In this document: piece by piece, positions 2,457-29,200 of the stretch
Position numbering within the stretch: the stretch's first letter is position 1
Layout of the letters: the number at the start of each line of letters is the position of its first letter
Origin: a virus
DNA: 64,000 nucleotides
IMG/VR virus record: IMGVR_UViG_3300029922_000014
Coordinates: 32,001 to 96,000 of that record
Direction: 5' to 3' (one strand)
Translations under genes and position numbers: made by a program
Notes under the pieces: model-generated
What the model was told of the DNA's origin: nothing
Seen by the model: only the letters and a program-made list of their open reading frames with translations
Databases searched by the model: none

Positions 2457-4724
2457 TCAGGCAGTGGGCAGGGTAAGCGAAGCGCCGGTGGGCAGCAGGG
2501 TCACGTCGAGTTCGATCACCTCGGCGGTGTCGAACGGAACGATGAAGAGCTTGGCCTTCATCGTCTTGTTCTGCTGCTGGAGCACCGGGTTGGTGGTCGC
2601 GTCGCAGATGACGTAGAACTGGTCGAGACCGCCGGCCGACTTGAGGCTGGAGAGCCCCGGGTTGACCAAGTCCTGGAGACGCTTCCAGGTGGTCGGGCTG
2701 TTCGGGCGGAAGTCGAGGATCCGCACCGCGGTGGCGCACAGCTTCTCAGCGTACAACAGCATGCGCCGGATCGCCACCTCGTTGAGCGCGCTGGAGACGC
2801 GCGATAGGGTGCGATTGGCGTACACCGTGAGCCCATCGCCGGTGGCGACGAGGTTCAGGATGTAGTTCACGCGGTTGACGATGTTGACGAGATTGCCCTG
2901 ATCACCGGGGTTCGGGCTGTATTCGACCTTGAGTCCGTTGACGTGGCCACGTTCGATGCCGGCCGGGGCCGCCCATGGACCGACTTGACTGTCGTTGAAC
3001 GCGAAGACCGCAGCGGCCGAAGCCGACGGCGGCAGCCAGATGTACGTCTGGTTGTATGCGTCGTAGTACTGGACCCAGGACCAGTACAGGGCGCCATAGC
3101 TCGAATTGAGCGGCGCAGTGGGGGCGTTGGCGATGTAACCGGCGAGACCGTTGTGCCAGTCCACGACCTGCTGGACCGACAGGCCAAAGGGCGGATCGAC
3201 GAGATAGATGAAGTCACCGCGGGTCTGGGCCAGGGTCAGGGCGGCGTTGATCACCGCCTGATTGGTGATGCCTGGAATGGCCAGGACGTTGAACTCGACC
3301 ACGTTGGGGTCTTGGAGAGCCTGAAGCCCGGTGGCCGACTGCCCCGAAACCGTGCCGATGTAGTCGGCGGCGGTCAGGTTGGCGATGCCGTCGGCGCCGG
3401 TGGTGGTGGTGCCGAGAACGTACGTCCCCGGGGTGACCACGCCCGCAACGAGGGTGAGCGAGGACAGGTACGCAGACGGACCGACTTCGTTCGGGATGCC
3501 CTGCACCAGCACGGTGTCGATGAAGCGCGCATTGCCGGCGGTCAGCGACAGGTTGTGGAACTGTTCCACCGGAGCCAGCGCGTTGGTGCCGAGGCTGCCT
3601 TGGGGGTACGACACGAGGATGTCGATGTTGCCCGCAGGAGCGCCGAGGATGACCGTCGGTTGGATCAGGACGCTGATGGCGTTGCCCCAGGTTCCCGGGG
3701 TGAACGCGGACAGCATGACGATGCTGGCGCCGGTTCCGGTCGTTGCAGCGGCGCCACCGGACATGCCGGTGATGATCTGCGTGACGGCCGAACCGTAGAG
3801 GTGCGTGTTTCCGTCCGTACCCACCACGGCTGCCCGCAGGCTCGCCAGCGGCGCATTGGTGCTGATGTTGGTCGCGACATAGCCGAGCAACGTGGCGGCG
3901 TTGATCGCCAGCACGAGGCTCGCCAGGGTGACATAAGCCGTGCTGCCGATCGGAACGGCGATGTGACCGCCACCGGGAGTGGTGTTGGTGAACTCGAAGA
4001 TGGTCTCGGGACTGCCATTGGTCGCGGTGATGATCAACGACGACGCAGCGATGGCAGCGAGCAGGTTCAGGAACGTCGCGTAGGCGTTGGTGCCGATGAG
4101 AACCTGATTGCCCGTGGGGCCAGACGCCACGAAGGTGAAGGTCACCGGGGTCACACCATCGCTGATGACCAGCGTGTCTGCCGCAGTCGGATTCGCACCG
4201 GCGATGAAACGGATCGAACCGGAAGCGGCAACGAGCGAGGTGCCACCGGACATGCCTGCAACGAGCAGAGCAGCCGAGGTGGTGGTGATCGCGACGTTGC
4301 CGGCGGTGCCAGGGGCGTTGCGCGTGAGCAGGACGGTGGGGATCTGCCGGGGGATTGACAGCGTGTCACCGGTGGTCGGATTCGCAGCGAGTCCGACGGT
4401 GCCAGTGGCGTAGGTGGCAGCGGCGGAACCGGTGAAGCCAGGAATGGTGGTCTCAGCGGCAGCGGCGTCGCTATGGGCGACACGCACATACTGGAGGTTG
4501 ATGCCTTCGGCCAGGGGCGGAATGCAGGACTGGATACCGTAGTCGTTCAGGACCGGCGGACCGAACTTGTTGACGAGATCCTGCTGACTGGTGCATTCAG
4601 TCGGCACGCCGATCGGACCCTTCGTGGCACCGCCCATGACGACGATGTTGGTGAGGCCGAGAGCGGGCGCGTACTGCGACCAGTCATATTCCTTGACGTA
4701 GATACCGGCGGGCTGGAATGCCAT
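2457..4724 (-). CDS. contractile tail sheath protein (T4 gp18-like)
   Basis: PAGIYVKEYDWS, GGATKGPIGVP, NVLAIPG, YLVDPP, NSSYGALYWSW, WLPPS, WAAPAG.ERG, IRRMLL. Confidence 0.92.
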   Translation of the reverse strand: MAFQPAGIYVKEYDWSQYAPALGLTNIVVMGGATKGPIGVPTECTSQQDLVNKFGPPVLNDYGIQSCIPPLAEGINLQYVRVAHSDAAAAETTIPGFTGSAAATYATGTVGLAANPTTGDTLSIPRQIPTVLLTRNAPGTAGNVAITTTSAALLVAGMSGGTSLVAASGSIRFIAGANPTAADTLVISDGVTPVTFTFVASGPTGNQVLIGTNAYATFLNLLAAIAASSLIITATNGSPETIFEFTNTTPGGGHIAVPIGSTAYVTLASLVLAINAATLLGYVATNISTNAPLASLRAAVVGTDGNTHLYGSAVTQIITGMSGGAAATTGTGASIVMLSAFTPGTWGNAISVLIQPTVILGAPAGNIDILVSYPQGSLGTNALAPVEQFHNLSLTAGNARFIDTVLVQGIPNEVGPSAYLSSLTLVAGVVTPGTYVLGTTTTGADGIANLTAADYIGTVSGQSATGLQALQDPNVVEFNVLAIPGITNQAVINAALTLAQTRGDFIYLVDPPFGLSVQQVVDWHNGLAGYIANAPTAPLNSSYGALYWSWVQYYDAYNQTYIWLPPSASAAAVFAFNDSQVGPWAAPAGIERGHVNGLKVEYSPNPGDQGNLVNIVNRVNYILNLVATGDGLTVYANRTLSRVSSALNEVAIRRMLLYAEKLCATAVRILDFRPNSPTTWKRLQDLVNPGLSSLKSAGGLDQFYVICDATTNPVLQQQNKTMKAKLFIVPFDTAEVIELDVTLLPTGASLTLPTA
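4356..4368. repeat. dispersed palindrome (inside sheath gene)
   Basis: atTGACAGCGTGTCAcc. Confidence 0.8.
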
Positions 4725-4744
4725 ATGCGTGTTCCTTCGTCAGG

Positions 4745-4947: not shown

Positions 4948-6711
4948 TCAGACTTGGTTGCCGCTGTACCCGCCAAGGTAGACCTGCGCTCCGACGTTCG
5001 CAAGGAGCACAGCGGTCGGGGTTCGGGCAACGATTGTTCCGGCAACAGGTTGGATAAGCGCGGCCATACCGACGTTGACGGCAGGATCCACCGCTTGGCT
5101 GTTGGTGAACGTCGGAGATGTGTCGTCGTCCACGTCAAAATAGCCGGAAGCCGATCCCGATGCGAGCGTAGCCAAGATCAGGAGCGGCGAGTTCGGCAGA
5201 CCTGTCCAGGTATACCACGTCTCGCCGCCGACCGCGGTCACTGTCGTAGGCGGTACCTGCGTTCCGGCATGGATCTGACGAATGACGATGTTCGATACCC
5301 AGAAGTTGGCGGCGACATTCGCACCGGCAATGGTCGCAAAGATCGTCGGCGCATTGCAGACCACGAAGAGGTGGACCTTCTTCGGGATCGGAGCGGCCGG
5401 CAGCGGCTTCGCGTAACTGGAGGTGTTGGCACCCTGAACAGTGACCGCACCGAACACCGGCTTCGTGTCGGCGGCAGAGGTGAAGGTATAGGTGAAGGTA
5501 TTCGCGCCAGTGACGGTGATGACGAATGCGCCATTGTACGCACGTGGCTGCGCACCGCAGACGGTGACCGTCGAACCGTTGGGAAGACCGTGCGGCGCAG
5601 TGGTGGTTGCAGTCACGGTGATTGTTCCGGAAGCGAACGCCTTGGTCAGCGTCACGCCAAGAATCGGCGTCGGCGTCTGCCCCAAGAGCAACGTCACCGG
5701 CTGGTCGGAAACGTAGGTGAAGCTGATTGACACGATGTCATTCGACGTCGCGAAGTCAGGAACGATGATCCGTTGGATGATCGGCACGGTGTCGGTTGGT
5801 GCATCCACCGTCATCAGCAGCGTCCCAACAGGAAAGTTTCCGCGGGTGACCTGAGCGATGGTCGCCTCCCCGGTGACCGGCCATTTGACGCTGATCATGT
5901 CGGTGTTGTACGGGATGCTGAACAGATTGTCGGTCTGGTACGCGTAGCTGCCCACAGCATCTGCCACCGCAGGAACATCCGTGGGCGCGGCATTCGGATC
6001 GGGCAGGATGACATCGAAGCCGATCGCCTGCACCTGCGGTGCTTCAGGCGCAGATTTGAACATCATCCACGTGCGCAGGTTGAAACTGTATTCGGTGCGC
6101 AGATAGCGGTAATCATCTCCTTCGAGATCAGAGAGGTCGGAGGACCCCTCATAGCGCAGGCGCTGATTCATCAGGCCCCAGGGCTGGCGATGCATCACGG
6201 GCAGCAGCCATTCGTTGTGTGCCAGTCCTGGGTATGAGCCAAAGAAGGACAGGAACCATTCCTTGATCACAGCTTCGGTGTTGCGGTTGAGACACCACGC
6301 GGTGACGGTGTACGTGGTGGTGTAGTGTCCTGGCCACTCATGTGGGATGTATTGCCCGGTCACCGGGTTGTAATCTCCGGCCTCGAACATCTTTGCAGGA
6401 CCGGCCAGTTCAGGATCGGGCTGCGGTTCACCGCGCTCAAAGGTCAGCATCGGCAGCGGAAACACAGAGAAGTCCTTGGCATTCGCCGTTGCACCTTTTC
6501 CTGTGGTGGTGATCCAGCCGGTGGTGACCAGCGTATCGACAATGGTGGCGTATTCGCGGGCGGGGCTGCCTTGAATGATCAGGATCGGAACTTGGTTCTT
6601 GGCGACGCCGTGATCGGTCTGGTCGTAATCGACGAGCAGCCCTTGCAGCCACTTCACGATGGCGAAGTCGTGGATCCGGAGCGTATCTTCGTAGGTGGTC
6701 TGTTGGGCCAT
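4948..6711 (-). CDS. tail completion / sheath stabiliser (gp15-like) with beta-rich C-terminal extension
   Basis: PLPMLTFER and YLRTEYSFNLRTWM resemble gp15-type terminators. C-terminus contains the TTAPHGL...VTV.GA...YNG.FVITVTGANTFTY beta module. Confidence 0.6.
   Translation of the reverse strand: MAQQTTYEDTLRIHDFAIVKWLQGLLVDYDQTDHGVAKNQVPILIIQGSPAREYATIVDTLVTTGWITTTGKGATANAKDFSVFPLPMLTFERGEPQPDPELAGPAKMFEAGDYNPVTGQYIPHEWPGHYTTTYTVTAWCLNRNTEAVIKEWFLSFFGSYPGLAHNEWLLPVMHRQPWGLMNQRLRYEGSSDLSDLEGDDYRYLRTEYSFNLRTWMMFKSAPEAPQVQAIGFDVILPDPNAAPTDVPAVADAVGSYAYQTDNLFSIPYNTDMISVKWPVTGEATIAQVTRGNFPVGTLLMTVDAPTDTVPIIQRIIVPDFATSNDIVSISFTYVSDQPVTLLLGQTPTPILGVTLTKAFASGTITVTATTTAPHGLPNGSTVTVCGAQPRAYNGAFVITVTGANTFTYTFTSAADTKPVFGAVTVQGANTSSYAKPLPAAPIPKKVHLFVVCNAPTIFATIAGANVAANFWVSNIVIRQIHAGTQVPPTTVTAVGGETWYTWTGLPNSPLLILATLASGSASGYFDVDDDTSPTFTNSQAVDPAVNVGMAALIQPVAGTIVARTPTAVLLANVGAQVYLGGYSGNQV
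5728..5740. repeat. dispersed palindrome (inside CDS)
   Basis: atTGACACGATGTCAtt. Confidence 0.9.
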
Positions 6712-6731: not shown

Positions 6732-6744
6732 TGACACGATGTCA
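6732..6744. repeat. dispersed palindrome (gene junction)
   Basis: atTGACACGATGTCAgt. Confidence 0.9.
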
Positions 6745-7197
6745 GTGCGCAACCACTGCACGTCCAAGAGCGGGTTCGATCGGGCGTCCGTCGAGAAGCG
6801 ACTTCACCTGCATGACGTCGAGCATGGCGTGTGTGCGAAGCCAGAGCAGGTATTCAGACGCGTTGATGTAGGCGCGGTTCATGCCAAGAGGGGTGCGCAT
6901 CGGAATTGGCGATTGGCCGATAACGTCCACCAGGAAAAGCGTCCCTGATATACCGTAGCTGCGACGGTTCTCGGCGGTCTGAAGCAAGGCGTTCTTGGCA
7001 CCAAGGAGGATGCACATGCAGTGGTGCCACATCGGCTTCTCGCGGTCGGTGAGTTCGAGCGCCTGCAAGCCGTCGAGGTCGATGACCTTTTCGACGCTGA
7101 CCCCAAAACGGAGGTCAACGCGCATGAGCACGGAACCGTGGCCTTCGACGCGCAGGATCTTCCCGGCGTACACCGCAGGTGGGAGTTGGATGGCCAT
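6742..7197 (-). CDS. degenerate thermonuclease (SNase-like) fold protein
   Basis: YAGKILRVEGHGSVLMRVDLRFGVSVEKVIDLDGL mirrors the phage SNase-like pattern Y.A.V.RVVDGDT..VDIDLGFG.....RL.GI, but the catalytic DGDT is absent. TGATG overlap with the upstream gene. Confidence 0.45.
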   Translation of the reverse strand: MAIQLPPAVYAGKILRVEGHGSVLMRVDLRFGVSVEKVIDLDGLQALELTDREKPMWHHCMCILLGAKNALLQTAENRRSYGISGTLFLVDVIGQSPIPMRTPLGMNRAYINASEYLLWLRTHAMLDVMQVKSLLDGRPIEPALGRAVVAH

Positions 7198-10167: not shown

Positions 10168-10264
10168 ACGGTGTTTCCTTGGGTTCTGAGTAAGACCGCA
10201 CTGCGGTCAGATACCCAGGTTTAAGGCAAACCGATGGCGAAGGAAGGCAGCGGCGGGTGTTGAT

Positions 10265-10277
10265 TGACGTCGTGTCA
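10265..10277. repeat. dispersed palindrome, 1-mismatch variant
   Basis: gatTGACGTCGTGTCAatc. Confidence 0.8.
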
Positions 10278-10278
10278 A

Positions 10279-11049
10279 TCAGGGAACGTGCGCCCAAACC
10301 TTTCGGCTGACGATCATACTGACCGTCGGTCGGGAAACTCCGTAGTCTTTACCGACCGCCTCCTGAACCTCACCTGCGGCGCAGCGCGTACGGATCGCAC
10401 GAACATCAGCTTCGGTCAGTTTCGCGCCGCCAACACGCTCTCCGCGTGCAACATTGACCAGCCCGGCCGCAATGGCTTCTTTCCGGCCACGGTTTGCGTT
10501 GGGGATCTTGCGCGGAATGACTGGACGAACATTTCCCTCTTCGTCGAGAGCTTGAACGTTCTTCCATGTTTTGTGGTTGACGATTCTGCTGATTTGACCA
10601 GGAACCATAGCGTAGTCGAGACCAATGGCGTACTGCGTCTCTCCTGTGGCGTACCTGCGCCGTATTTCACGAACGTCATTTTCAGTTAGCTTGGCGTTAC
10701 CGTGCGCTTCGCCACGACCACAATCGGTAAGGCCGTTGGCGACCGCATGATCACGGTTCTCCTGATTCGTGGCATATTCTAAGTTCGACGCGGCATTGTT
10801 CGTCTTGTCTGTGTCCTTGTGATTGATCTGTGGGCGATCCACAGGTGGCGGTCCGTGAAAGGTCAGAGCGATGAGCCGATGAACATAGCGTGGGTGCCTG
10901 ATCTTATCCACGTACAGCGAAACGTTGCGGTATTCACCGCCGCGTGCGCTCTTGTAGGGCGTCAGAATCTTTCCGGTGTCACTGTTTCGGATGCTGCCAT
11001 CCTCATGAGCTTCATATGGTGGAAGGTCAGGGATAGGTGTCCAGGGCAT
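10279..11049 (-). CDS. HNH homing endonuclease with duplicated C-terminal HTH modules
   Basis: HRLIALTFHG, INHKDTDKTNN..SNLEY, and two copies of GE..G.AKLTE.DVR.IR. Confidence 0.9.
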   Translation of the reverse strand: MPWTPIPDLPPYEAHEDGSIRNSDTGKILTPYKSARGGEYRNVSLYVDKIRHPRYVHRLIALTFHGPPPVDRPQINHKDTDKTNNAASNLEYATNQENRDHAVANGLTDCGRGEAHGNAKLTENDVREIRRRYATGETQYAIGLDYAMVPGQISRIVNHKTWKNVQALDEEGNVRPVIPRKIPNANRGRKEAIAAGLVNVARGERVGGAKLTEADVRAIRTRCAAGEVQEAVGKDYGVSRPTVSMIVSRKVWAHVP

Positions 11050-15946: not shown

Positions 15947-16669
15947 TTAGAGATGCGACCGCGCAAGCGCATCCAGCGGCAGGTTGGAGACCGCGACAAA
16001 CGTCTCTCCGAAGTAAACTCTGGACGGAGACATCTCTGCGAAGCTCGCGCGCAACAGGTCGAGGTCTCCGGGGGGACAGTCCTTATCCCACCACGCAGGA
16101 ACGAACCCGGCTGCCCAACTCGTTTCATTCGCGGTGTTGGCGTCGTGAAACTCGTCGAAGGCCATGACGTCGATGATGCGATCGGTTTCCGGGTCCTTCA
16201 CTTGAATACACAGCGTCTTGCGCGGAGCAATCGCAGTGACTGCGGCAAGCTGCACGGGGCGAGCATTGATGTAGTCGCGCCATTCTTTGAACGCTGGGCG
16301 CAACTCTTCATCCAGATACGCACCGAAGGAGTCCAGTTTTGCATTGTACGCCGCCCGGTTGAGGTCCTGGTCGGCGTGCCCGTTGTTGATCCAGGCCCAA
16401 TCCTCTTCCGAATCCGGCGACGAAAAATACAGATGCGCCGGATTCGCTCCGGCAATCGTCCAACAGTCCGCGCCGTTAGGAATCACAGCGCCGTTGAAAA
16501 CGAACATCCCTTCGTTGAGCGCCCACTGCTCCAACCGCCACCAGTTCGTAGACATGGCGATCGTTTTCGTCGGCCCGCTGATCACGAAGTCGAGCGGGTG
16601 TTCTTCTCCGCCTTTGATGTAAAGGACCAGACCGCGCGCACAGTCTTTAAGGAACGGGTGCATGGTCAC
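15947..16669 (-). CDS. hypothetical protein
   Basis: Overlap-coupled to the giant gene. Confidence 0.6.
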   Translation of the reverse strand: MTMHPFLKDCARGLVLYIKGGEEHPLDFVISGPTKTIAMSTNWWRLEQWALNEGMFVFNGAVIPNGADCWTIAGANPAHLYFSSPDSEEDWAWINNGHADQDLNRAAYNAKLDSFGAYLDEELRPAFKEWRDYINARPVQLAAVTAIAPRKTLCIQVKDPETDRIIDVMAFDEFHDANTANETSWAAGFVPAWWDKDCPPGDLDLLRASFAEMSPSRVYFGETFVAVSNLPLDALARSHL

Positions 16670-19600
16670 TCCCAGGTCGCATTTTCACGGACAACGAAAA
16701 CCTTCTCGGGCGTGCGTCCGCGTGCGAACGACGTCCATCCAGCGGCTGCACAAATTGCCAAGGCCTTCTTCACTTTGTCTCCGTCGGAAAGTACCACTGT
16801 ATGCAAATACTTCCGCACGTCGAGCGCATTGCGAACATGAAACTGCCACTGCGATCCAGGACTGACCGAATCGCCCAAGTCGCCAACGAGGCTGCCGGAA
16901 TTCGACTTGGCGTTCTTCCATGACTCCGGGGTCAGGTACCGTTTCGCCGTCACGCTTCCGTAGGCGTCAATGGATTCGGTATCGTTGGCACCACCGACCA
17001 CGACGACGTCAGTGCGCAGGAATGCCGACGGGTCGAAGTACAGAATGAGATCCGGCTGATTGACGATCTTGCGCATGCAGGCAAAGAAGCCCTGACCGCC
17101 GCCGACACGCAGGTCCTTTTCTGCGGAGGAGTTGCCCGCTGCATTCGAGCCTACGCCCATCGGAAGACCGTACAGACGTTTGATGTAGGCAGCAAAAATG
17201 GCACCGTTGTTTGCCGTCAGCTTCTGCATCATCGTAAGCACGTTATCGACGCGGTGGGCCAGGAACACCTTTCCGAACTTGGCGACGATGTCTTCGCGCG
17301 TCACCCCCACACGATAGGACTCACCGAAGCCAACATCGTTGGGATGGTGAAACTCTGGGTTCCATCCAGGGAGATCCTTCAACTTGGCCGGGGTGGTGTT
17401 GAGCTTGGCAGCCAGGATCGCAGACAGCTTCGTGCGGGCCGCTTCCGCGTTTCCGCCCTGGTAGTCGGCCATTGCCTGCTTGTATGCGCCGTCGGTGACG
17501 TCACTGCCCTCTTCGCCGGGTTTGAATCCGGTGCCCGTGTCCTGTGCCAGATACACCTGCTTCGCGAGGTACAGCACCTCCTTGTCTTTATCCGTCGGCG
17601 GCTTCATGCCGATACCGGCCGCACGTTCAAACAGGTTCAGGAGTGCGGCGACATGGGCCACGGTCGGCTCGCCCGGAATGATTCCCCAAACCTGCCCACG
17701 GAAGGATTTTACCTCGCCGTGCGGGCTGTTGAAGTACACCGTCGCACCAGGGACCTGCGTAGACGTGATGACGAACTGCGTCTGCCCGTGCCCATTCGGC
17801 TTGACCAATGCCATCGGGGTAATGTCCATCTTGACGTTCTTGCCGGTAGGCGCGCTGTCCGGCATGAACCCGGAATCGACCCGCTTCTTGATGGTGATGT
17901 CGGATGGTTCAGAGGTGTCGGATGCCGATGCTTCTGGCGCCCACACGAACGGTTCGATGGGGGGCAGCTTCTTTCCAATCTGCGCCTGCGGATTCTTGCC
18001 TGCCTCTTCGATGGCGAGACAGAAGGGCAGATACTTCGCGATCATGGCGCGCACAACTGCCTTCGGGATGGTCTGATAGTTGCCCTCGCCGTGCACATCA
18101 AGCAGCAGCGCCTGAAGTTGTTTCCGCACCGCAATCACTGCTTCGACCTTGGCCACCTTGATGTTGCCGTCGTTGTGCTCGAAGCAGTGGCTGTCGACGG
18201 AGCGCTGTGCGTCATAAATGACACCGTAGAAGGGCGAACCGCGAACAGCGCTGTCGAAAGGAAGCACCGCAGGTCCGGTTGACTCAACCACGCCACAGAC
18301 AGCGCCGAGCTTTGCGATTGCAGCAACTGCCGCATGGCGGGCCACACGAAAATAAATCACGGTGCCGGCGGTTTCGGTGGTCCCCGAGAGGATGACGCGC
18401 TTGACCATCACCTCCTGGTTGTCGATGGCATCGCGGTCGATCTGCATGCTGCGCCCGGCCCATTGCGCCTGCGCAGCGATCGACACCGACTTGTGCTCCT
18501 CATCAGAGAACCCCTGCTTGTCGGGGTAGTCGTGCAGATGCGCAGGAACGCTCGACGGCAGGGTGTACGACTTGGTGTATGCCGCCCACTCCCACTTCTC
18601 GCCGCGCTGCTTGGCCAGCTTCGCCATCTCGGCAGTCCAGGCTTCGACATACCCATCACGCCGGGTTTTCATCCGCGCCAGAAGCCCGGCGAGCTTGGAG
18701 TCGGAATAGCCGCCCTCCTGTGCGATAGGCGCGATGGTGCTTTCGAGGTCGTCATCCGTGATCGCAGCCACCCGCAGCATGGTCTTGCGCATCGCAGCGA
18801 AGACGGCGGGTGCAATGACGGTCTTTGATTTTGACCAGTCGATGAGCAATTGCTTCGCGACCGGCTGCCCGACATTGCCCGGCGCATTCCAGGCCGGGTC
18901 CAACGACTCTTCGATGCCTTTGGTGACGAACTTGAAGGCCTGCCCGATGTCGATCGGCACCAGCTTTCCGGTGGTAGTGCGCAGCCAGTTGTTTCCGTGC
19001 CCGTCGTGGTTGCCAACGAACATGTCGAACACGTGCTGCTGCATGATCGCGATCATGTCGGATTCGGAGAGGTCTTTGGACGTGTCGACCGCGAATCCGA
19101 GTTCTTTCGCGTCTGCGATGAACGGTTGTGCGGAATACGTCTTTCCGCCGAGTTTGACCACGGTCGCTGGGACGTTGTTGTCCTTGACCATGTTCGCGAG
19201 CTTGAACGCCGCGGCATCGGTGAATGGGCGGATGGCATTGGAGTCCCCGTGCGCGGGCGCCTTGAGGATCCACTTCGCGCCGTCGGCAGTCGTAGCGAAG
19301 AAGATCGGCTTCGATCCGCCGCCAGGACCAGCACCGGCAAGGGTCAGCTTGTCGCCGGAGAGCGCGAGCGTCTTCGTGATCAGGGGATCAGAGGTGATGC
19401 TGGGAGGCGGCAGCATCTGCGTGGCATTTGCCGGCGGTGCCTTCGCGCTGCCCTTCTTCTGCTTGAGCGCAGCGCGGGCCTTCAGGCAGTTGAGCATGAT
19501 CGCTTTGAGCTTCCACGGCATTCCAGGCAGGAAGAGCGTGGCGGCGGGCTTGATCAGTTCCTTTGAGACCTGCGCGTAATGTGGGAACTCCGCCTCCTTC

Positions 19601-22600
19601 AGCAGTTTGCGGAACTCGGTCAGCGTCCCATGCCAGTTGCCCTGGGCGGCGGTAGTCTGAATGAGGTGATTTTTGTTTGCGTCGGGGTGAACATAGTATG
19701 CCGGCTCATCCAGCGGGGTTTTGGGAGGTCCCCAGCCACTGGACGGAAGCTCACTGAGCGGCGCGCAGATGAACGTGGCGGCCTGCGTCATCATCACCAC
19801 ATAGGTCTTGAGCGCGCCGTCGGCAGTTTCGACGCCGACGCTCCCAAGCACGAAACAGCCCCAGAACGACGAACCGGTGTCGTCGTTGACCATTCCATAT
19901 TCGGCGCCGGCAGTGGTGGAGAGCTTGATGATCGCCTGCCCCTGCAACTTCTTCTTCACCGCCTGAATCATGTCGGTGGTAAACGGAACGGAGCCTTCGA
20001 GCAGCGCTTCCCAAACATCCTCGTACGGCGCTGGCGGGATGTTCTGACCTGCGTTGTCGGTGGCCGCGGTGGGCTGTGAGGTGTAGTCGGCTTGTTTGGG
20101 CTTTGCAGCGAGGATGTTGCCGTTCGTCGTCAGCCACTTTTCGGTATCCTTCACCACCTGCTTGTCGCGCACAGAGAGTTCTGCGTACCAGTTGGAGTCT
20201 TCGTAATTGTCCATCGGGACCAGGAAGGTCTCTTCTGTCTCTTGGGGATCCTGGTCTTTAAAGCCGGTCAGAGAGCCACCCGTGGGCTTGGCAATGAACA
20301 GGCGGGTGATCGACGTGGACCCCATGTAATCGCCCAGGTGAGCCAGCGGGACGCAAGAGATGCCAACCTCCTCGAACACTTCGCGCACGGCTGCCTTCTC
20401 GGTCGATTCGCCCGGGTCAACGCCGCCCTTCGGGAAGGTCTTGGAATAGCCACCGAACTCGTTCAGCGGATGCACCAGCAGAAGGTAATGGCAGCCGGTA
20501 GTGGCCCCACCAATCGCTGCGCCGGGGGGAAAGACCACCACGCATCCGGCGGCTGGCTTCTTGCCTGCGATCGTGGCGAACGTCGGTTGCTCAACCGCAG
20601 TGGGGTTGTTCCAGCCCTGGGGCTTCTCACACGGGATTGACACGGTGTCAATCGTCACCGCGCAGTTGTTTTCACCGGGTTTGAAGGTGGCAACGCCGAC
20701 ATGACCAAAGCCATCGGGAAGCGCCGGTTCCTGCTGTGACCACTGGAACTTAAAGCTGACGGGATCAACCTCACCCGCAACATCCTGAACCAGCGGCGTG
20801 CCTTGCCCCGGGGCGGTCGAGTCCTTGAACCAGAACCAGCCAGCGACTACGCCTTCGGCACCGCTGGTATGTTTGACCTGGGTGCCAATAGGAAAGAAAA
20901 CACCTTCAGGCGCCGGGACAAGGTGGTACCCCTGATGATTCGCGATCCAGGCGGTGACTTCTTCCGACGGCGCATATCCCAGCGGCGAACTGGGCTGGCC
21001 CTCTTCCTTCTTCTCCCAGTTCGATGGCTTGGAAACGGTGAAATACGCCTTGCCGTCCCCGTTCTTGACAACTGCCATGGGCTTCTGTCCTGAGACGAGA
21101 GGGTGGGATCTGACCCACCCCACTACCGTCACGACAACGCCCGCTCCGATCTTGTCCGTAAGCTCCGTTCCGACCGGAAAGAACTCGCCGGCTGGCGCAT
21201 GGACCAGGGTGTAATGAAGATCATTCGCCCAATCCTGAAGTTGCTGTGAAACGACATATCCGGATGCAGGCGGAATGAACTGGTCTGGCTCTTTCTTCGT
21301 CCAGGCTTCAGGGTTGAACGCGATCGACGGCGGACCGCCTCCGGGGCTCTGGGAAAGCATGAACGTCTTCGCGAGGATGGATGCCGATCCCGACGTTTTC
21401 TTCACGTACCCAGAAACGACTTCAGTCGTCCCGTAACCGACCACTTCGGTGCCGATCGGAAACTCTCCGGGCGGAACAGGAACAAAAACGTAGCCTGCCT
21501 GTTCGGCGTATTCCTGATGGTGCTGCGAAACCTCGTACCCCAACGCAAGCGATGACGTCGGCGCTTCGACCGGCTCGTCGATGATGCTGGCAACCGGAAC
21601 ACCGCCAATCACCTGTCCAACAATCCACTGCGGCGGGCCGCCCGACTGCGTGACGCTGTCGATGTAGTAGTACGTCACGTTGCCAACAGTGACGCCCCCC
21701 AGCATCTGCATGGCCTTTGGCCCATACGTCAGATAGGGCGGTTTCGTAAGCCACTTGAACGCATCGGCTGGATGGCAGTTGTGCACGACCACGCCATAAG
21801 CGTCATCAACCGCCTTGAAGTCGATATCGGGAGTCACCGGACTGCCGTGCATCGGAAGGAGCAACGCGAGCTTGTACTTTCCAGCGGTCTCGTCGACAGC
21901 GAGCACGTACATGTGCGTCTCGACCTGCTTCCCTTTCGGGATCAGGATGTCGCCTGCCTTGAAGGCCGGAACGGGCTTGGACACCACGGGCGGAAAAACC
22001 GCGATAAGCGGGAATGTCACCGTGTCCTCGATGTCCGCGTCGATCGTTTCTGCGGTGCAACGCCACATGACCCACTTGCCGTCCTTCGCAGTGTATGCGT
22101 ACGCCCAGGAATAGCCGTCGAGGTCGATCGTGTACGTTTTCGTCGCGTAGGCGAGTTCAGCCTTCCCATCCCCGGTCGGATCGGAAATGAACGCACAGGC
22201 TTTTGCAGCGGTGGAAGCAGTGCCGATGAACTCGTTTTCGCCACTCTCGTCGAAGGTCTCGGCAATGACCTTTACCGACGTTGCGCCGAACAGCGCCAGC
22301 GGAGCCAACCAATAGGTCGTGACTCCGGCTTTGGTGCCGATGTGCCCAATCCAATACCGCATCTTCTCTTCGTTGTTTCGCACGATGTCGTTGACGCTGA
22401 ACTTCGGAACGTACGCCTTGGGCATCTCCGGTGCCTTCTTCCACACCGGCGTGATCTCGCCGCTTTCGATCTTTGCTGCGAGCGCGTCGTCTTCGTAGTC
22501 GTCGATGTCACCATCGTCATCCTGGCAGATGACCAGAACATCATCGACAACGACCGCTTCGCCGTTTTCATCTGTCGCGGGCAGGTCTTTGACTTCGATC

Positions 22601-24018
22601 ACCGCCTTGACGGTGAAGATGACTCCTGATTTTACGTGCAGCAGTTGCGTGATCGACTCGTACTGCTTCTGCGTTCCTGCCGTCGCAGCAATGAATGCCG
22701 ACGCAGTCTTGGTTTCGAGGTAGTCGAGGGGATGCCAATTTTCAGGATGGTCGGTGTACCCGGCGGCGTACTTGTCTTCGAGATGCGCAGCGAGCCAGCC
22801 GGATTGCAGCGTCGGCTTCGGCGCGGCGACAGGTTCCGGTTCCGGCGTGGGTTCTGGCGCGGGGACAGAAGTCGGAGCAGCAATAGGTGCCGGCGCTGGC
22901 GTCGGTGCGGCAGCGGGCGCGGGAATGAACTTTGTGACGTGCTCTTCAGTGAAGACACCGAATGGAACGCCGACATCCGACTCGGCAGGGATGCCGCCGT
23001 TGATGACCGTCCAGTCTTTGGCGATCCACGCCGCCAAGTAGATGTGGAAGATGCCGCCATTGAGCTTGCGGTGCACGATCCATTTATGGAAAAGTTCGAG
23101 CGTCTGGTGCGCGGTGATCTTGTTGATCGCCCAACCGTGATAAGCCTTTTCGATCAGGTCCCAGAACTTCTCCATCAGATTCTCGAAACCGTGGACCTTC
23201 GACGGATCTTCCCACTTTGCCCCGTGCGGGTGCATGTAGGTGATCGCGGCGTTGATGGCGTCGGAATACTTCGCGAAGCCAGAAACCGCGTCCTCAAGGC
23301 CCGGGGGCTTCTTGGTGCTCTTGTTCAGTTCCTTGATCTTCGCCTTGTCCTCGGTCGCCAGCACGAGGTAACCGATGAAGGTCGGCCAGATCATCTTGGT
23401 GGCAACGACCGCGGGCTGATGGATCAGTTGCTGCCACTTCAGCGATTCGTCGAGCATGCGCAGGGGACGAACGACGGCGAGTTCATTCAGGTCGCAGCGG
23501 GCGGCGTCGGCGTACTTGCCCTGAATATGTTCTGCGATGACACCAAACACTTCGGGCATCTTGTAGCAGGCTTCGATGGCCTCACCGACCGCGTCTGCGT
23601 GAGAACCGAACGTGGCGACCATGTCGGGGATGTCGTGTTCTTGGCGCAGGCGCTCCCAGAGGAATCGGCCGACGCTGGCTTCGGTCAGGTTCCATTCCGT
23701 GCGCCAGCCATCATCGCCAAGGGCTTCCGCGATCTCGGTTACGCTGGCGTGAAGCAAGGTGCCAAGCGAAAGCGAAACAGGGGTCTTGCCTAAGAGCGTG
23801 GCGGTGGCAAAGGCGTATCCAGCTTCGCGCCCGTAGTGGTCCCAAGCAGCGGAAGCAGATTCGGAGACGTGGACGCGTTCACAGTTCAGGCGATTGAAGC
23901 GAACGATCCGCTTCAACACACCGATGCTGACCTGTCCACTTGCCAGAGCTTCGCTGATCTTGCGCTTCTCCGGGATGGCGGCGGCGATGGCGCGGACGGC
24001 GGCGGGTACATGGATCAC
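16666..24018 (-). CDS. 2450-aa polyvalent protein: Nudix hydrolase + PI3/4-kinase/HipA-like kinase + possible ART-like C-terminus
   Basis: Nudix box FPKGGVDPGESTEKAAVREVFEEVG. Kinase motifs GGSKP, WILK, FDMFVGNHDGHGNNWL and PIDIGQAF. Confidence 0.85.
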   Translation of the reverse strand: MIHVPAAVRAIAAAIPEKRKISEALASGQVSIGVLKRIVRFNRLNCERVHVSESASAAWDHYGREAGYAFATATLLGKTPVSLSLGTLLHASVTEIAEALGDDGWRTEWNLTEASVGRFLWERLRQEHDIPDMVATFGSHADAVGEAIEACYKMPEVFGVIAEHIQGKYADAARCDLNELAVVRPLRMLDESLKWQQLIHQPAVVATKMIWPTFIGYLVLATEDKAKIKELNKSTKKPPGLEDAVSGFAKYSDAINAAITYMHPHGAKWEDPSKVHGFENLMEKFWDLIEKAYHGWAINKITAHQTLELFHKWIVHRKLNGGIFHIYLAAWIAKDWTVINGGIPAESDVGVPFGVFTEEHVTKFIPAPAAAPTPAPAPIAAPTSVPAPEPTPEPEPVAAPKPTLQSGWLAAHLEDKYAAGYTDHPENWHPLDYLETKTASAFIAATAGTQKQYESITQLLHVKSGVIFTVKAVIEVKDLPATDENGEAVVVDDVLVICQDDDGDIDDYEDDALAAKIESGEITPVWKKAPEMPKAYVPKFSVNDIVRNNEEKMRYWIGHIGTKAGVTTYWLAPLALFGATSVKVIAETFDESGENEFIGTASTAAKACAFISDPTGDGKAELAYATKTYTIDLDGYSWAYAYTAKDGKWVMWRCTAETIDADIEDTVTFPLIAVFPPVVSKPVPAFKAGDILIPKGKQVETHMYVLAVDETAGKYKLALLLPMHGSPVTPDIDFKAVDDAYGVVVHNCHPADAFKWLTKPPYLTYGPKAMQMLGGVTVGNVTYYYIDSVTQSGGPPQWIVGQVIGGVPVASIIDEPVEAPTSSLALGYEVSQHHQEYAEQAGYVFVPVPPGEFPIGTEVVGYGTTEVVSGYVKKTSGSASILAKTFMLSQSPGGGPPSIAFNPEAWTKKEPDQFIPPASGYVVSQQLQDWANDLHYTLVHAPAGEFFPVGTELTDKIGAGVVVTVVGWVRSHPLVSGQKPMAVVKNGDGKAYFTVSKPSNWEKKEEGQPSSPLGYAPSEEVTAWIANHQGYHLVPAPEGVFFPIGTQVKHTSGAEGVVAGWFWFKDSTAPGQGTPLVQDVAGEVDPVSFKFQWSQQEPALPDGFGHVGVATFKPGENNCAVTIDTVSIPCEKPQGWNNPTAVEQPTFATIAGKKPAAGCVVVFPPGAAIGGATTGCHYLLLVHPLNEFGGYSKTFPKGGVDPGESTEKAAVREVFEEVGISCVPLAHLGDYMGSTSITRLFIAKPTGGSLTGFKDQDPQETEETFLVPMDNYEDSNWYAELSVRDKQVVKDTEKWLTTNGNILAAKPKQADYTSQPTAATDNAGQNIPPAPYEDVWEALLEGSVPFTTDMIQAVKKKLQGQAIIKLSTTAGAEYGMVNDDTGSSFWGCFVLGSVGVETADGALKTYVVMMTQAATFICAPLSELPSSGWGPPKTPLDEPAYYVHPDANKNHLIQTTAAQGNWHGTLTEFRKLLKEAEFPHYAQVSKELIKPAATLFLPGMPWKLKAIMLNCLKARAALKQKKGSAKAPPANATQMLPPPSITSDPLITKTLALSGDKLTLAGAGPGGGSKPIFFATTADGAKWILKAPAHGDSNAIRPFTDAAAFKLANMVKDNNVPATVVKLGGKTYSAQPFIADAKELGFAVDTSKDLSESDMIAIMQQHVFDMFVGNHDGHGNNWLRTTTGKLVPIDIGQAFKFVTKGIEESLDPAWNAPGNVGQPVAKQLLIDWSKSKTVIAPAVFAAMRKTMLRVAAITDDDLESTIAPIAQEGGYSDSKLAGLLARMKTRRDGYVEAWTAEMAKLAKQRGEKWEWAAYTKSYTLPSSVPAHLHDYPDKQGFSDEEHKSVSIAAQAQWAGRSMQIDRDAIDNQEVMVKRVILSGTTETAGTVIYFRVARHAAVAAIAKLGAVCGVVESTGPAVLPFDSAVRGSPFYGVIYDAQRSVDSHCFEHNDGNIKVAKVEAVIAVRKQLQALLLDVHGEGNYQTIPKAVVRAMIAKYLPFCLAIEEAGKNPQAQIGKKLPPIEPFVWAPEASASDTSEPSDITIKKRVDSGFMPDSAPTGKNVKMDITPMALVKPNGHGQTQFVITSTQVPGATVYFNSPHGEVKSFRGQVWGIIPGEPTVAHVAALLNLFERAAGIGMKPPTDKDKEVLYLAKQVYLAQDTGTGFKPGEEGSDVTDGAYKQAMADYQGGNAEAARTKLSAILAAKLNTTPAKLKDLPGWNPEFHHPNDVGFGESYRVGVTREDIVAKFGKVFLAHRVDNVLTMMQKLTANNGAIFAAYIKRLYGLPMGVGSNAAGNSSAEKDLRVGGGQGFFACMRKIVNQPDLILYFDPSAFLRTDVVVVGGANDTESIDAYGSVTAKRYLTPESWKNAKSNSGSLVGDLGDSVSPGSQWQFHVRNALDVRKYLHTVVLSDGDKVKKALAICAAAGWTSFARGRTPEKVFVVRENATWE
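20638..20650. repeat. dispersed palindrome (inside giant gene)
   Basis: gatTGACACGGTGTCAatc. Confidence 0.9.
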
Positions 24019-24470
24019 GGTGTTCTCCGATGCTTGCTCTTGGCGTCACGCTCTTCGCGACGTTTGAGCACCTGGGATGGAAGCTTGATTGACACGATGT
24101 CAGTCTTCGGCGGCTTGAGCTTCGTCAGCAAAGCGCTCAGCGCATCTGCATTCGCTGGCGCCTCATGGAACTTGTCTTTGTACCGAACGGAGAGCGCGCC
24201 CATGAGACCGATGACGTGGACGGTGTAGTCGTGCTGGGTGAGCTTTTTGACGGCCTTGTCCACCTCGGTCACGGACCAGCCACGCGCCAACAAAGCCGCC
24301 TGTGAGGCTTCTGGAACGATCAGCGACTTCGAGGTCTGTCCGTACACCCGACGCGAAACTGCGGCGAGCGGAGAGAGCGTGCGGGGATTGATGAGGGCGT
24401 ACCCGGCTTCCTTCACCAGCGCTTCAGCGCGCGGGTGTAGTGGGCTGGTCAGGACGACGGCGACTTTCAC
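24015..24470 (-). CDS. hypothetical protein
   Basis: Coupled to the giant gene by a GTGA overlap. Confidence 0.55.
   Translation of the reverse strand: MKVAVVLTSPLHPRAEALVKEAGYALINPRTLSPLAAVSRRVYGQTSKSLIVPEASQAALLARGWSVTEVDKAVKKLTQHDYTVHVIGLMGALSVRYKDKFHEAPANADALSALLTKLKPPKTDIVSIKLPSQVLKRREERDAKSKHRRTP
24090..24102. repeat. dispersed palindrome (inside CDS)
   Basis: atTGACACGATGTCAgt. Confidence 0.9.
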
Positions 24471-24937: not shown

Positions 24938-26146
24938 TCAGGCTTTCTTGACGGATTCCGGCTTCGGTTCCGCGCGCCGGCCATTGGGCATGCGGCTCAG
25001 GATGCGGCTGGTGAGCCCGGCACCTTCCATGACGTTCGAGATGGCGTCGGTCTGGTGCGCGAGCAAGGACTTCTTGGCCTTGCCGGGCGCCTGCTTGCTG
25101 ACCGGGACTTTGGCCTTGACCTTGGACAGGAAGCTGGCCTTGGCCTTCTTCGCCGGTTCACCCTTCTTGGGGGCAGCCTGGGGCTTGGTGGTCGCGCCGG
25201 CCTTGATCTGGGCTGCGGTCTTCTTGGTCTTGTCGCCCGACTTGGCGGCGCCGGCAGCGGACTGGGCAGCGTGGCCGCCGATGAACTTCTTGTACTTCGC
25301 GACGCCGGCCTTCGAGCCGGTGCTGTAGTCCACCTTGCCGTTGGTGTTGTATTTGTCGCCGCGGCCGGCGGTGCCGGCCTTGGTGTAGGTGCCGCCGGAC
25401 TTGGCGCCGGGGGCGACGTATTTCTTCTGGCCGGGTTTGGCGCGGGCGATGACCTGCTTCGCGAGCATGGCCAGGGACATGCGCACGACCTTGTTCTTGC
25501 CCTGCTCGCCGCTCTTGCGGATCTTCACGAAGTCGCCCTTCGCCATCTCGGTCAGTTCGGCTTCGGTCATGTCGAGGTGGCCGACGATCGCAGCACGGCG
25601 GGTCTTCTCGGCCAGGGTGCTGACGGGCAGGTTCGAGATGTGGTGCAGGACCAGCATTTCCAGGTCGTCTTCGTCGACCATGTAGGCGGCGAGTTCGCCG
25701 GGGACCTGTTGGATGATGGCCGGGACGGATTCGTCCTTCTTGTCATCTTCCTTCTTTTTGCCCTTGGTGTCCTTGTCGTCTTCTTCGTCGTCCGCATCAT
25801 CCTCGTCTTCGTCGTCGGCATCTTCCTCTTCTTCCTCATCATCGGCGTCGTCGCCCTCTTCGTCATCCTCATCATCGGCCATGGCTTCACCGATGGCGCC
25901 GACGAAGGTCTCGTCGGTCGAGGCCTTGAGGTCGATGGTGCCGTGGAAGCGCTCGACGTGCGCGCGCAGTTCCTTGTCGGCCAGGATGGATTCGATCAGC
26001 ACGTCCCAGTCGACCGATTCCAGGAAGTCCTGGATGGTCTGGCCTTCGATGGTGAGCTTGTCGCCGTTGTAGAGGAGCGCGGCGACCGATTCGTCCGCAG
26101 CGGGGGCGATGGGTTCGTCGGCGCGCTGGGTGATGATGAGCGGCAT
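24938..26146 (-). CDS. prohead-core / internal-protein-like protein with acidic and Lys/Ala-rich halves
   Basis: CAGGAG RBS; D/E tract of about 35 aa followed by a histone-like K/A-rich C-terminus; strong GC3 codon bias. Confidence 0.75.
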   Translation of the reverse strand: MPLIITQRADEPIAPAADESVAALLYNGDKLTIEGQTIQDFLESVDWDVLIESILADKELRAHVERFHGTIDLKASTDETFVGAIGEAMADDEDDEEGDDADDEEEEEDADDEDEDDADDEEDDKDTKGKKKEDDKKDESVPAIIQQVPGELAAYMVDEDDLEMLVLHHISNLPVSTLAEKTRRAAIVGHLDMTEAELTEMAKGDFVKIRKSGEQGKNKVVRMSLAMLAKQVIARAKPGQKKYVAPGAKSGGTYTKAGTAGRGDKYNTNGKVDYSTGSKAGVAKYKKFIGGHAAQSAAGAAKSGDKTKKTAAQIKAGATTKPQAAPKKGEPAKKAKASFLSKVKAKVPVSKQAPGKAKKSLLAHQTDAISNVMEGAGLTSRILSRMPNGRRAEPKPESVKKA

Positions 26147-26200: not shown

Positions 26201-26213
26201 TGACACGGTGTCA
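26201..26213. repeat. dispersed palindrome (intergenic)
   Basis: acTGACACGGTGTCAgt. Confidence 0.9.
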
Positions 26214-26223
26214 GTCCTTGGGA

Positions 26224-29200
26224 TCAGACGGCGGGAACGAAGCTGATGCCGGTGCCGGTGAAGACTGCCTGTACCTTTTCGGCCGCGATGCGACCGGTGG
26301 TGACGGTGACGGTGTTCTCTTCGATCTTCACTTCGGTGTCGCGCGGGGCACCGGCGTCCTCAGCGAATTGCAGGAACTCGTCGAGGCGATTGCGCGGGAA
26401 GGTGATCACCACCGTGGTGTAGTCAAGACCTTCGAGCGACAGTCCCTTTCCGAGGGTGCGCTTGATGATCGGGTTGGCATGGGTGATCTTGCGCGCCATC
26501 GCACGCCGGCCGGGGCCAGCCTTGTACGCTTCGACCAGCGCTTGGGTCTTCGCGCGGAAGTCCTCGGGCAGGTCGTTCTTGGCGCACTGCTCCATCTCCG
26601 CAAAGAACTCGTCGTCGTCCATGCGGCGGATGGATTCGACCCATTCCTTCACGGTGTCACCCACGGTGGACGGCATCTTGAAGTCGGCGGCGCTGCCCGT
26701 GGTCCCGCAGTTGTCGCAGGAGCACTTGCCGTCTTTCACGGTGATGCCCTGCGTGGCTTCGCACTTCGGACAGGCCATCTGCAAGTTCATGCTGGCGTTG
26801 CTGGTAGTGCCTTCAGGCACGGAAGCCGGAACGTCATCATCCCCCGCGCCGCCGGCATCGTTCTGCGGCCCCTTGGTCTTGGCATCGCGCACGCCGGTGT
26901 TGGTCTTCTTGACCTTCTTCTGATTGACCGCAACACCATCCGGATCGAGGTCTTCTTCAGACTCATCCAGCTTCTGGGCGTTGGCAGCCGCGACGCCGGC
27001 CTTGAAGCGCGGGTGACGTTCGACCGGATTTGCGTTCGGATCGAAGGTAGCTTGGTGCTTCTTGAAGTAGGTGTGGTCCTCGTCGGAGTGCTTCTTGAAC
27101 GTGGCCGCCAGCTTGTGGTTGCCTGCTTTCTCATGGCGGTCGGCCATGGTCCGCAGATACCCGGTACGCTGGGCGGCGTTCAGGTAGTTGGAATGGGTGA
27201 CGCCCTTCTTGTCGCCTTCGTCCATGCCCGAATCCGGCTTGGTCTTCGAGAAGCCGCCCTTGCTGCCGGGACCGGTCTGGACCAGCTTGTTGCTGGCCAC
27301 CTTGCCCTTCTTGCCCGGGATGCCGGTCTCCTTTTCGCCTTCGCCGTCCTCGCCGGTTTCCTCTTCCTCTTTGACCAGCTTGCCCGACCAGTTCTTGGGC
27401 TTGATCGCACCCATGCGGAAGTGCTTGGCGGTGAGGGTGTGGCGGCGACCTTTGCGATGAGCGCGGGCGGTCAGGCCTTCGACGACAGACGCGAGCAATT
27501 CCTTGCCTGCCGCTTCCGCGATGGCCTGAGCGGCTTCGAGCGCAAAGGCCGGTTCGTCTTCGGAGACGGCTTGGTCGTAGGCGTCGATCAGGTTGCTGTC
27601 GATGGTGGGGTCAGCACGGAACATCTCCGCCAGGACGTTGCCCATGGCGTCGTACCATTCGTTCTTGGACTGCGGCACGTAGACATAGCCCTGCTCCTGG
27701 GCCTTCTGGCTCAGATAGGCTTCGCCGTTCGAGAGGTCGTCCTGATCGGACAGGTCGCACTCGACGGAGTCGATGATCGCGCCGTCGCCGTCATAGCCCT
27801 TGCGGAGTTCGAGTTTGCCTTCGCCGGGAACGATGACCGCGCAGCCTTCATCCGGATCCTCGCCGGTGCTGTCGTCGTCGCCGTCGTCATCCTTGCCCGC
27901 ATACGGGCTGACGGTGCCGTTGCCTTCGCCGGGGAAGAGACCGGCCTTCTTGGCCTTGATCACTTCTTCGACGTCTTCCTTGGTGGCGTTTTTGGAATGG
28001 AGCGCGCGGGCGGCGGTCGCGAACGCCTTGTTGTCGGACGCTTTCTTGAAGTCGACCTTGAACTTGGCGTCGTCGGAAGCCGGCGCGGTGCCGCCATGCT
28101 CCGTAGCGAGCTTGCGCAGTTCCGCATGCGGGAGGTGCTTCTTGATCATCTCCATGTCGAAGGTGGTCGAGGTGTCCGACTCTTCGAGAGCTTCGTCGAT
28201 CGCCGGACCGCCGCCGGTCTGATGCCCCGGATTGGTCACCCAATGCCCGCGCGCGTTGTCTTCATTTCGCACCAGCATCTGGCCGAGTTGGAAGCGCAGG
28301 TCTTCATATTCGCGACGCTGGCTCTTGCCGCCGAGGTACAAGGTGGCGTCGTCATCGGGGCCGAGCTTGTCGGACAGGGAGTCGTTCACGCTGGCGTGGA
28401 GTTCCGCGATGCGCTTGCGGGCTTCCGCGGGATCGTAGGTGTTGGCGTCGTCTTCGTTGAGCGATTCTTTGACCTTTTCGGTGGGATGAATCCCCTCCAA
28501 ACGCTTGTGCTCTTCCTTTGCAGCCTTGATGAAGGCGGGGTGCTTCATGACATCTTCGGCGTCGCCTTCTTTTCTGACCTTGGCGTATTCCGCAGAGGCG
28601 CCAGTGAATGCGCTGTGCGCGTCATTCGCAGAGTGCATGAACGGGCCATTCTCGAACTTGGCACGTTTCGCGTGTTCGCGTTTCGCGTAGCTGTGCCCAG
28701 CATCTTCGGCATGATACTCGGCGGTCCTGGGAGTCTTCGGCACCGGCTTACGCTCGACATACGCTTCAGCCAAAGCAGCGTTGATTGACACGGTGTCAGT
28801 GTCATCGGTCACCGATTCATTCACGACCTTCTCACGCAGCTTGATGTCGAGGGCCTTGACCTTAGGGTCGGCCTTGAGCGCGACCATGATGGCATTCGCG
28901 AGCTTGTCGCCCTGGTCCTCGCACACCGTCTTGATGGCGCGCTGCATGACGAACTCGGCCAGTGCGTACGACGGAGTCTCGTCGATGAAGTTGTCGCTGC
29001 GGAAGCTGATGCCGCAGTAGTTGGCGTATGCTGCTGGCTGCCCCGCCGCCATGAGTCCCTTGTTTTCGCCATCGACGCCGACGATCTTCATCCAGGCTTC
29101 GGTGAGCGCGACGCTGGCGGCCTGCTCGTCGATCTCTTCGGATTCGGTGAGCTTGAGGAGGGACTTGTGGATGCCGTCCACGTCCTCTTTGGTCAGCTTC

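Follow-up and report, generated by a model that had tools for sequence, protein, structure and literature searches.

Our results support the view that a single short palindromic DNA site is distributed at regular intervals along the entire chromosome of an uncultured phage of the lytic type, and that the spacing is maintained in part by copies written into the coding sequence of its genes. The stretch of DNA considered here (the window, 64,000 nucleotides) comprises bases 32001–96000 of IMGVR_UViG_3300029922_000014, a 150,436-bp virus record that has a 127-bp terminal overlap and 59.6% G+C and is rated complete; it belongs to a myovirus with a tail sheath and a T4 gp21-type protease. An initial annotation of the window had described six copies of the palindrome inside genes, encoding near-identical peptides in unrelated proteins, and had proposed that selection on site density shapes protein sequence. 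On balance, although with some reserve, we favor the reading that these six peptides are the trace left in coding sequence by a lattice of one double-stranded DNA site that spans the genome, and the best candidate reader of this site would be a phage protein of the ParB/Noc/KorB type.

The core of the site, TGACA-YNN-TGTCA, occurs 21 times in the window, where 0.07 copies are expected. In the genome as a whole, with the terminal duplicate copy left out of the count, there are 50 distinct exact copies of a 19-bp near-palindrome, all of which read RAY-TGACA-N-CG-TGTCA-RTY when turned to one orientation. The center is asymmetric, with an invariant CG step preceded by T in 38 of the 50 copies (for example, the one at window 20638–20650). 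Six more copies carry one or two mismatches, for a total of 50–56 sites. By position, the exact copies fall into 29 that are intergenic, 9 that lie at gene junctions and provide the stop codon of the upstream gene through the TGA of the motif, and 12 that are internal to genes. About 14 of the intergenic copies serve as the −35 region in a long, conserved promoter cassette; others lie 6–21 bp ahead of a start codon. Promoters, through the −35, and very small gene junctions thus account for most of the copies. Besides the five junction copies in the window (Table 1), there are four at genome positions 28675, 100038, 101684 and 143217, and two of the nine motifs (window 43560 and genome 100038) also contain the codon at which the following gene begins.

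The spacing of these sites is far more even than expected by chance. The 50 exact copies occur about once per 3 kb, with a largest gap of 6434 bp and a coefficient of variation (CV) of gap length of 0.54, compared with a mean largest gap of 13.5 kb and a CV of 0.97 for sites placed at random; none of 20,000 simulations was as even. Inclusion of the six near-copies (56 sites) reduces the largest gap to 5526 bp and leaves the evenness result unchanged; the earlier estimate of a spacing of at most about 5 kb was thus close. If the 12 internal copies are removed, six gaps of 7.7–10.7 kb appear, each of which is split by at least one internal copy in the actual genome. When 12 copies are placed at random in coding DNA, the largest gap falls to 6434 bp with a probability of only P = 5e-5, equivalent to 5 cases in 100,000. 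A copy is present in every one of the four genes above 3.3 kb, as against 2 of the 142 genes shorter than 1 kb. Of the gaps that remain, two of the largest are divided by the two intragenic near-copies.

As first described, the six internal copies in the window, at the coordinates given in Table 1, are all read on the minus strand, that of the genes, in one frame (xxT GAC AYN NTG TCA) and encode xD(T/I)(V/L)S(I/M). Across the genome, a codon-usage model predicts 0.03 coding copies, whereas 12 are seen; the two intragenic near-copies share their frame, and this frame is identical in 22 of 22 internal copies across four genomes, including 4 of 4, 4 of 4 and 2 of 2 in three related phages. The initial annotation had pointed to the common frame, which carries no evidential weight, because the genetic code closes the alternatives: the motif opens with TGA on both strands, so that one frame contains a stop, and the third frame needs ACA, which makes up 5% of Thr codons, together with TGT, when Cys accounts for only 1.2% of residues. 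The codon-usage model places 91–94% of coding copies in the observed frame, so that 12 of 12 has a P value of 0.33–0.45, and we dropped frame bias as evidence. The argument from the shared serine codon carries no weight either. TCA is indeed rare, accounting for 8.0% of Ser codons in the genome and for 6.5% in the six genes, and in the sheath gene and the gene for a protein of 1151 amino acids (aa) the TCA of the motif is the sole one; but its use as independent evidence is circular, because a motif that contains TGTCA dictates TCA, and we set it aside as well.

More informative is the abundance of the encoded peptide. The pattern D[TI][VLM]S occurs 14 times in the predicted proteome against 3.4 expected, a roughly fourfold excess, and extension by the fifth residue gives 11 occurrences against 0.5 expected. 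Since 12 of the 14 peptides are encoded by the motif, the excess is entirely due to the DNA motif. The flanks of the site are also kept, at positions outside the search pattern: 11 of the 12 internal copies have A at −2 and T at +2. These observations indicate that selection acts on the DNA site and not on the peptide.

Comparison with orthologues provides a view of how the coding copies came about. The phage is isolated: no close relative was found in a collection of 5.8 billion proteins, and the best sheath relatives are 48% identical. When viral contigs were scanned, the sheath protein by itself gave no match, whereas an alignment did find relatives. We aligned the 12 motif-bearing proteins to whole or partial genomes of relatives at 35–49% identity. 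In no orthologue is the motif present at the same codons, and all have at least 4 mismatches in the 10 core positions. Sheath orthologues read G[DE]T[VIL][TSA][IV] at the site, including that of G004, a relative without an array of sites, and also differ from the core at 4 or more DNA positions; because the peptide is present in that relative, the site in the sheath made use of an already compatible peptide. Orthologues of the 587-aa protein read HAVVSI, YQILSI, RAVLSL and LAILTM, so that the V/L-S-I/L part pre-exists. In contrast to the sheath, the other peptides are not conserved. Orthologues of the protease extension read SEEVES, DSDKAA and AESARE, the closest homologue of the giant 2450-aa protein reads AGAVNL with an adjacent gap of 3 residues, and the motif residues of a 348-aa phosphoesterase-like protein and a 1337-aa protein are likewise not conserved. 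The site of a RecA-like protein falls in an unaligned N-terminal tail, the motif segment of the 1151-aa protein is not alignable in relatives, and for three motif-bearing genes, including one for a 151-aa protein, no homologue was found in the relatives. Overall, identity to orthologues is 25% at motif-coded residues and 37% over the full alignments; the sheath by itself reaches 50%, and the rest stand near 18%. Conservation of the peptide in phages that lack the DNA motif, which would have spoken against an origin in site selection, is thus confined to the sheath. Since no consistent insertion is seen at the sites, the alignments indicate that the coding copies arose by point substitutions in this lineage, at compatible or poorly conserved positions.

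Taken together, the even spacing, the filling of gaps by internal copies, the excess of D[TI][VLM]S peptides and the absence of the motif from orthologues bear out the initial proposal that site density shapes the proteins, as well as its corollary that the role of the site is not purely promoter-proximal. The statistics thus reveal a spacing constraint along the whole chromosome that is strong enough to rewrite codons and some amino acids.

Several features of the copies point to a site that acts as double-stranded DNA rather than as a hairpin. The arms are invariant in sequence, the outer positions show no co-variation (17 of 50 Watson–Crick), copies occur in both orientations (with respect to transcription, the center reads TCG in 23 and CGA in 15), and the predicted hairpin energy varies from −4 to −10.6 kcal/mol; this combination argues for a dimeric protein bound to double-stranded DNA. 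It also makes it improbable that the copies serve through RNA or DNA structure, whether as hairpins that pause, terminate or process long transcripts or as cruciform or nuclease targets for recombination-dependent replication or packaging. With nearly all genes on one strand, every copy is transcribed, and perfect copies fold at −8 to −10.6 kcal/mol, as such a function would ask; however, the commonest variant has an internal mismatch and folds at −4.8 kcal/mol, no better than shuffled sequence, the arms are invariant where compensatory change would be expected, and no T-run follows the sites. A signal for cleavage or termination would do harm halfway through a gene of 7.3 kb, and arms of 8-3-8 are probably short for cruciform extrusion. 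We rejected an RNA hairpin function on the missing co-variation and the hairpin energies.

It is still less probable that the coding copies derive from a small mobile palindromic element that inserted in frame. Near-identical 19-bp units in unrelated genes would be natural products of such an element, and in one orthologue alignment of the RecA-like protein there is a 5-residue gap at the site in the N-terminal tail. Nevertheless, the sheath and the 587-aa, 348-aa and 1337-aa proteins align without a gap at the site, and the giant protein is shorter there, not longer; on these alignments we rejected an insertional origin, which would explain neither the gap-filling statistic nor the use of the TGA and ATG of the motif as gene boundaries. 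That the peptide itself is selected as a protein motif, with the DNA identity as a by-product, we regard as extremely unlikely. The conservation of the sheath peptide among relatives is what one would expect in that case, but 38 further copies are non-coding, 12 of the 14 such peptides use one motif-compatible set of codons that includes the rare TCA and ACT, and outside the sheath the peptides are not conserved in orthologues; the data already contradict selection on the peptide. We also considered a host-wide regulator site and rejected it, because a search for the exact 19-mer in 185,579 species genomes returned one match, a lone copy in a metagenome-assembled genome (MAG) of Sulfuriferula sp. 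This match (DAICZK010000056.1, 4436–4454) forms the −35 region of a TTGACA-N17-TATCAT promoter before a NUDIX-like gene; the MAG, of 1.6 Mb, has no other copy, and the match may be due to chance, about 4 being expected.

Related phages carry arrays of their own, with centers that read TTG or CSG in the close relatives. In the 156-kb genome G002 there are 17 copies of GTCCAGTGACA-CGC-TGTCACTGGAC, most of them between genes; their spacing is even, with a CV of 0.40 and a P value of 0.002 for the largest gap. The records G014 and G023 together have 14 copies of TTTGACAC-S-GTGTCAAA, a TTG/CAA center is found in the 12 copies of G020, and G001 has 5 copies. The array of the phage described here is by far the densest of these, and internal copies make up a larger share of it than of any other. 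De novo counts of palindromes revealed no array in G004. A more distant relative, G005 (IMGVR_UViG_3300033568_000010), in whose genome no ParB_N protein was found, contains 13 copies of GCTTGAC-N3-GTCAAGC within 82763–97693, each followed by a conserved AAAGG..TA stretch. We rejected these palindromes as a lattice because they are promoter elements clustered within 15 kb and have the appearance of a promoter family.

As for the protein that reads the site, we give a ParB-type protein slightly less than an even chance, and consider it possible, although doubtful, that another phage protein fills this role. The genome encodes a single ParB-like protein (genome 128145–129335, minus), with matches to ParB_N (54.5 bits) and HTH_ParB (30.1 bits), whose best solved relatives are Caulobacter ParB and Noc. 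Core motifs number 90 in the 645 kb of records with an orthologue of this protein, compared with 4 in about 1950 kb of sheath relatives without one. A search for AAA_31 and CbiA in the complete genome gave no match to a ParA partner, and the system therefore does not qualify as ParABS. In a mechanism of this kind, a dimeric phage protein would read the 19-bp site, and a ParB-type protein would be loaded as a clamp at each site, from where it would slide over a few kilobases; the even spacing would then hold the whole chromosome within reach of the clamp, and the copies on the −35 of early promoters could allow the protein to shut those promoters. Both the spacing and the −35 copies would fit what is reported for such proteins, as ParB spreads over ~5–10 kb per parS (PMC8367383) and KorB acts from proximal and distal operators (PMC11790492). 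More tentatively still, the lattice may reflect a maximum-gap rule of ~6 kb for the loading sites of a partner-less ParB-type clamp, kept even at a cost in protein sequence, and thereby a form of chromosome coating or marking in lytic phages.

A number of observations weigh against a lattice read by the ParB-like protein. The association between this protein and the arrays is confounded by phylogeny, as all carriers belong to one clade, and at least 5 other genes, including one for a DNA-binding protein of the HU/IHF type, have the same pattern of presence. G004 has five ParB_N proteins yet no array, and G014 has 10 sites and no ParB gene on its contig, which is 58% complete. The protein also reads GHRR where 6 of 6 orthologues read GERR, with the arginines kept; in Caulobacter ParB, hydrolysis of CTP, unlike CTP binding and clamp closure, depends on the Glu of this motif (E102; PMC8367383). 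The placement of the sites raises difficulties of its own. As many as 47 of 78 intergenic regions of at least 25 bp have no site, and the rule of placement is thus not simply to use intergenic DNA where possible. The initial annotation had stated that internal copies occur where no intergenic space exists, which holds for about 4 of the 12, these being the only ones more than 2 kb from any intergenic region (the copy in the 2450-aa gene is more than 4 kb away), and fails for the rest, since 7 of the 12 are within 1 kb of a free region. Finally, the 176 genes on which these comparisons rest, nearly all on the minus strand, were called by a purpose-made open reading frame scorer and are not a curated annotation.

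A different reader of the same lattice is rather unlikely in our estimate, although it deserves attention: a 133-aa HU/IHF-type protein (genome 120124–120525, minus) that would bend DNA at evenly spaced points to compact or organize the chromosome, or else an unannotated dimeric regulator. The HU-like protein (Bac_DNA_binding, E = 5e-10), which the array-bearing G001, G002 and G020 have and G004 and G005 lack, shows the same pattern as the ParB-like protein, and an asymmetric center with an invariant CG step could reflect indirect readout. There is also precedent for preferred sites in this family, as TF1, the HU-type protein of phage SPO1, binds such sites at early promoters. On the other hand, HU-family proteins are mostly non-specific, and an invariant core of 12 positions is more typical of readout by a helix-turn-helix. 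The HU-like gene was not seen in G014 or G023, both of which are partial records. Even spacing, moreover, has a ready rationale if the reader is a sliding clamp, and a less obvious one if it is a static bender.

The phage lattice can be compared with several known systems. KorB and its operators OB on the IncP plasmid RK2 (PMC11790492, PMC13768133), like ParB–parS and Noc–NBS, share with it a short palindrome that is repeated round a replicon. On RK2, some copies lie at or overlap promoters and others are far from any promoter, and the reader, a CTP clamp of the ParB family, slides away from the site at which it loads; the phage encodes a candidate with ParB_N and HTH_ParB. The two differ in density, RK2 having 12 sites on 60 kb and no described spacing rule, and the phage 50–56 sites on 150 kb. 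They differ as well in their accessory proteins, since RK2 has a ParA-type partner, IncC, and the clamp-locker KorA, whereas no ParA was found in the phage, and its ParB-like protein departs from KorB-type clamps in having GHRR instead of GERR.

Among phages, Cluster O mycobacteriophages such as Corndog carry 34 copies of a 7-3-7 palindrome, TGTTCGG-N3-CCGAACA, 11 of them in coding regions and of unknown function, along with a ParB-like gene (PMC4351075). The likeness is considerable: a phage-wide palindrome with invariant arms, a variable 3-bp center and more than 30 copies in both orientations, about a third of which lie in coding regions, as coding copies do here. The sequence is nevertheless different, and our phage, a myovirus with a sheath, is unrelated to Corndog. 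We found that the 34 Corndog copies (AY129335) are not evenly spaced, with a CV of 1.06, as for random placement, and a largest gap of 9.2 kb against a random mean of 8.3 kb. A spacing rule, with a CV of 0.54 and coding copies that fill gaps, therefore sets the present lattice apart. The effects on frame and proteome were not analyzed in the Cluster O study (PMC4351075).

Two further comparisons are instructive. DNA uptake sequences, as analyzed by Findlay and Redfield (2009, PMC2817400), are DNA motifs that accumulate in coding regions, favor particular frames, raise the frequency of the encoded peptides and prefer poorly conserved positions, and the phage motif shares these properties. Uptake sequences, however, are asymmetric, number hundreds to thousands and serve bacterial DNA uptake, whereas the phage has 12–14 coding copies under a spacing rule. 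The stoperators of Cluster A mycobacteriophages (PMC6550527) are repressor sites found in dozens of copies through the genome, some at gene junctions, but they are asymmetric and oriented with transcription (PMC4351075), whereas the phage sites are near-palindromic and occur in both orientations. We found no description in the literature of an evenly spaced phage palindrome array or of a phage ParB lattice; the search returned only the Cluster O repeats, the work on KorB and ParB, and the uptake-sequence paper.

The sites in the window are listed in Table 1, together with the genes that contain or adjoin them. The region with the six internal copies is a structural module that encodes the sheath, the 587-aa virion protein, the major head protein, the prohead protease and the 2450-aa, 151-aa and 1151-aa proteins, the last two of which have no assigned function. 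Some labels of the initial annotation need revision. Its scaffold gene encodes a prohead protease of the T4 gp21 type (Peptidase_S77) and not a plain scaffold protein, the motif being located in a C-terminal extension, and its assignment of the 587-aa protein to tail completion found no support.

Table 1. Copies and near-copies of the palindromic site in the window (window coordinates; minus, minus strand)
Class	Position	Gene	Peptide or context
Internal	4356–4368	Tail sheath (2457–4724, minus)	GDTLSI, residues 119–124
Internal	5728–5740	587-aa virion protein (4948–6711, minus)	NDIVSI
Internal	13166–13178	Prohead protease (12743–14242, minus)	TDTVSM, C-terminal extension past the S77 domain
Internal	20638–20650	2450-aa NUDIX-domain protein (16666–24018, minus)	IDTVSI, residues 1123–1128, near mid-gene
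Internal	24090–24102	151-aa protein (24015–24470, minus)	TDIVSI, 25 codons before the stop, 72 bp upstream of the giant gene start
Internal	28786–28798	1151-aa protein (26224–29679, minus)	TDTVSI
Junction	6732–6744	6742–7197 (minus)	TGA is the stop; 21 bp before the start of the 587-aa gene
Junction	32825–32837	32835–33275 (minus)	TGA is the stop
Junction	43560–43572	43570–43911 and 43005–43565 (both minus)	TGA stops the former, ATG of the motif starts the latter
Junction	56800–56812	56810–57010 (minus)	TGA is the stop
Junction	63427–63439	63437–63772 (minus)	TGA is the stop
Intergenic	816–828		21 bp before a start codon
Intergenic doublet	15435–15447 and 15473–15485		Copies 38 bp apart
Intergenic	26201–26213	24938–26146	55 bp upstream of the start
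Promoter cassette	30580–30592		Forms the −35 region of the conserved cassette
Intergenic	38351–38363		
Intergenic	41295–41307		
Intergenic	47508–47520		
Intergenic	52973–52985		21 bp before a start codon
Intergenic	61645–61657		16 bp before a start codon
Near-copy, intergenic	10263–10279		One arm mismatch (ATTGACGTCGTGTCAAT); splits the largest exact-copy gap (6434 bp)
Near-copy, intergenic	51687–51703		One arm mismatch; 27 bp before a start codon

Some further details of these sites and genes are worth recording. The frame that is closed inside genes by TGA is put to use at gene ends by the nine junction copies. Two doublets, with sites 37–38 bp apart (window 15435–15485 and genome 24977–25026), are both intergenic and provide the only spacings below 400 bp. 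In the promoter cassettes (the window 30580 region; genome 3077, 5340, 8114 and 101684–113633), a YANNNT −10 hexamer lies only 15 bp past the TTGACA of the palindrome, and a GGTCC-N3-GGACC hairpin stands immediately 5′ of the Shine–Dalgarno sequence. In the 2450-aa protein (window 16666–24018, minus), the NUDIX domain occupies residues 1179–1272, and a 3695-aa homologue also has NAPRTase and isochorismatase-family domains, so that giant phage proteins of this type may have a role in NAD-related chemistry.

Our analysis also carries a caution for similar work, in that a common frame and a common rare codon among the coding copies of a motif may be meaningless if the motif has a stop in one frame and rare codons in another. 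Beyond this, DNA signals in phages have mostly been treated as local elements, such as promoters, terminators and packaging sites, whereas the site described here is subject to a spacing constraint across the chromosome, one that alters structural and replication genes in their codons and in some of the encoded amino acids. Since the internal copies can be removed by synonymous changes, they offer an experimental handle on its function. The reading we favor predicts a protein that acts over a few kilobases from each site, and, if it is true, the purpose of the lattice could be the shut-off of early promoters, self-marking, or the compaction or protection of the phage chromosome.

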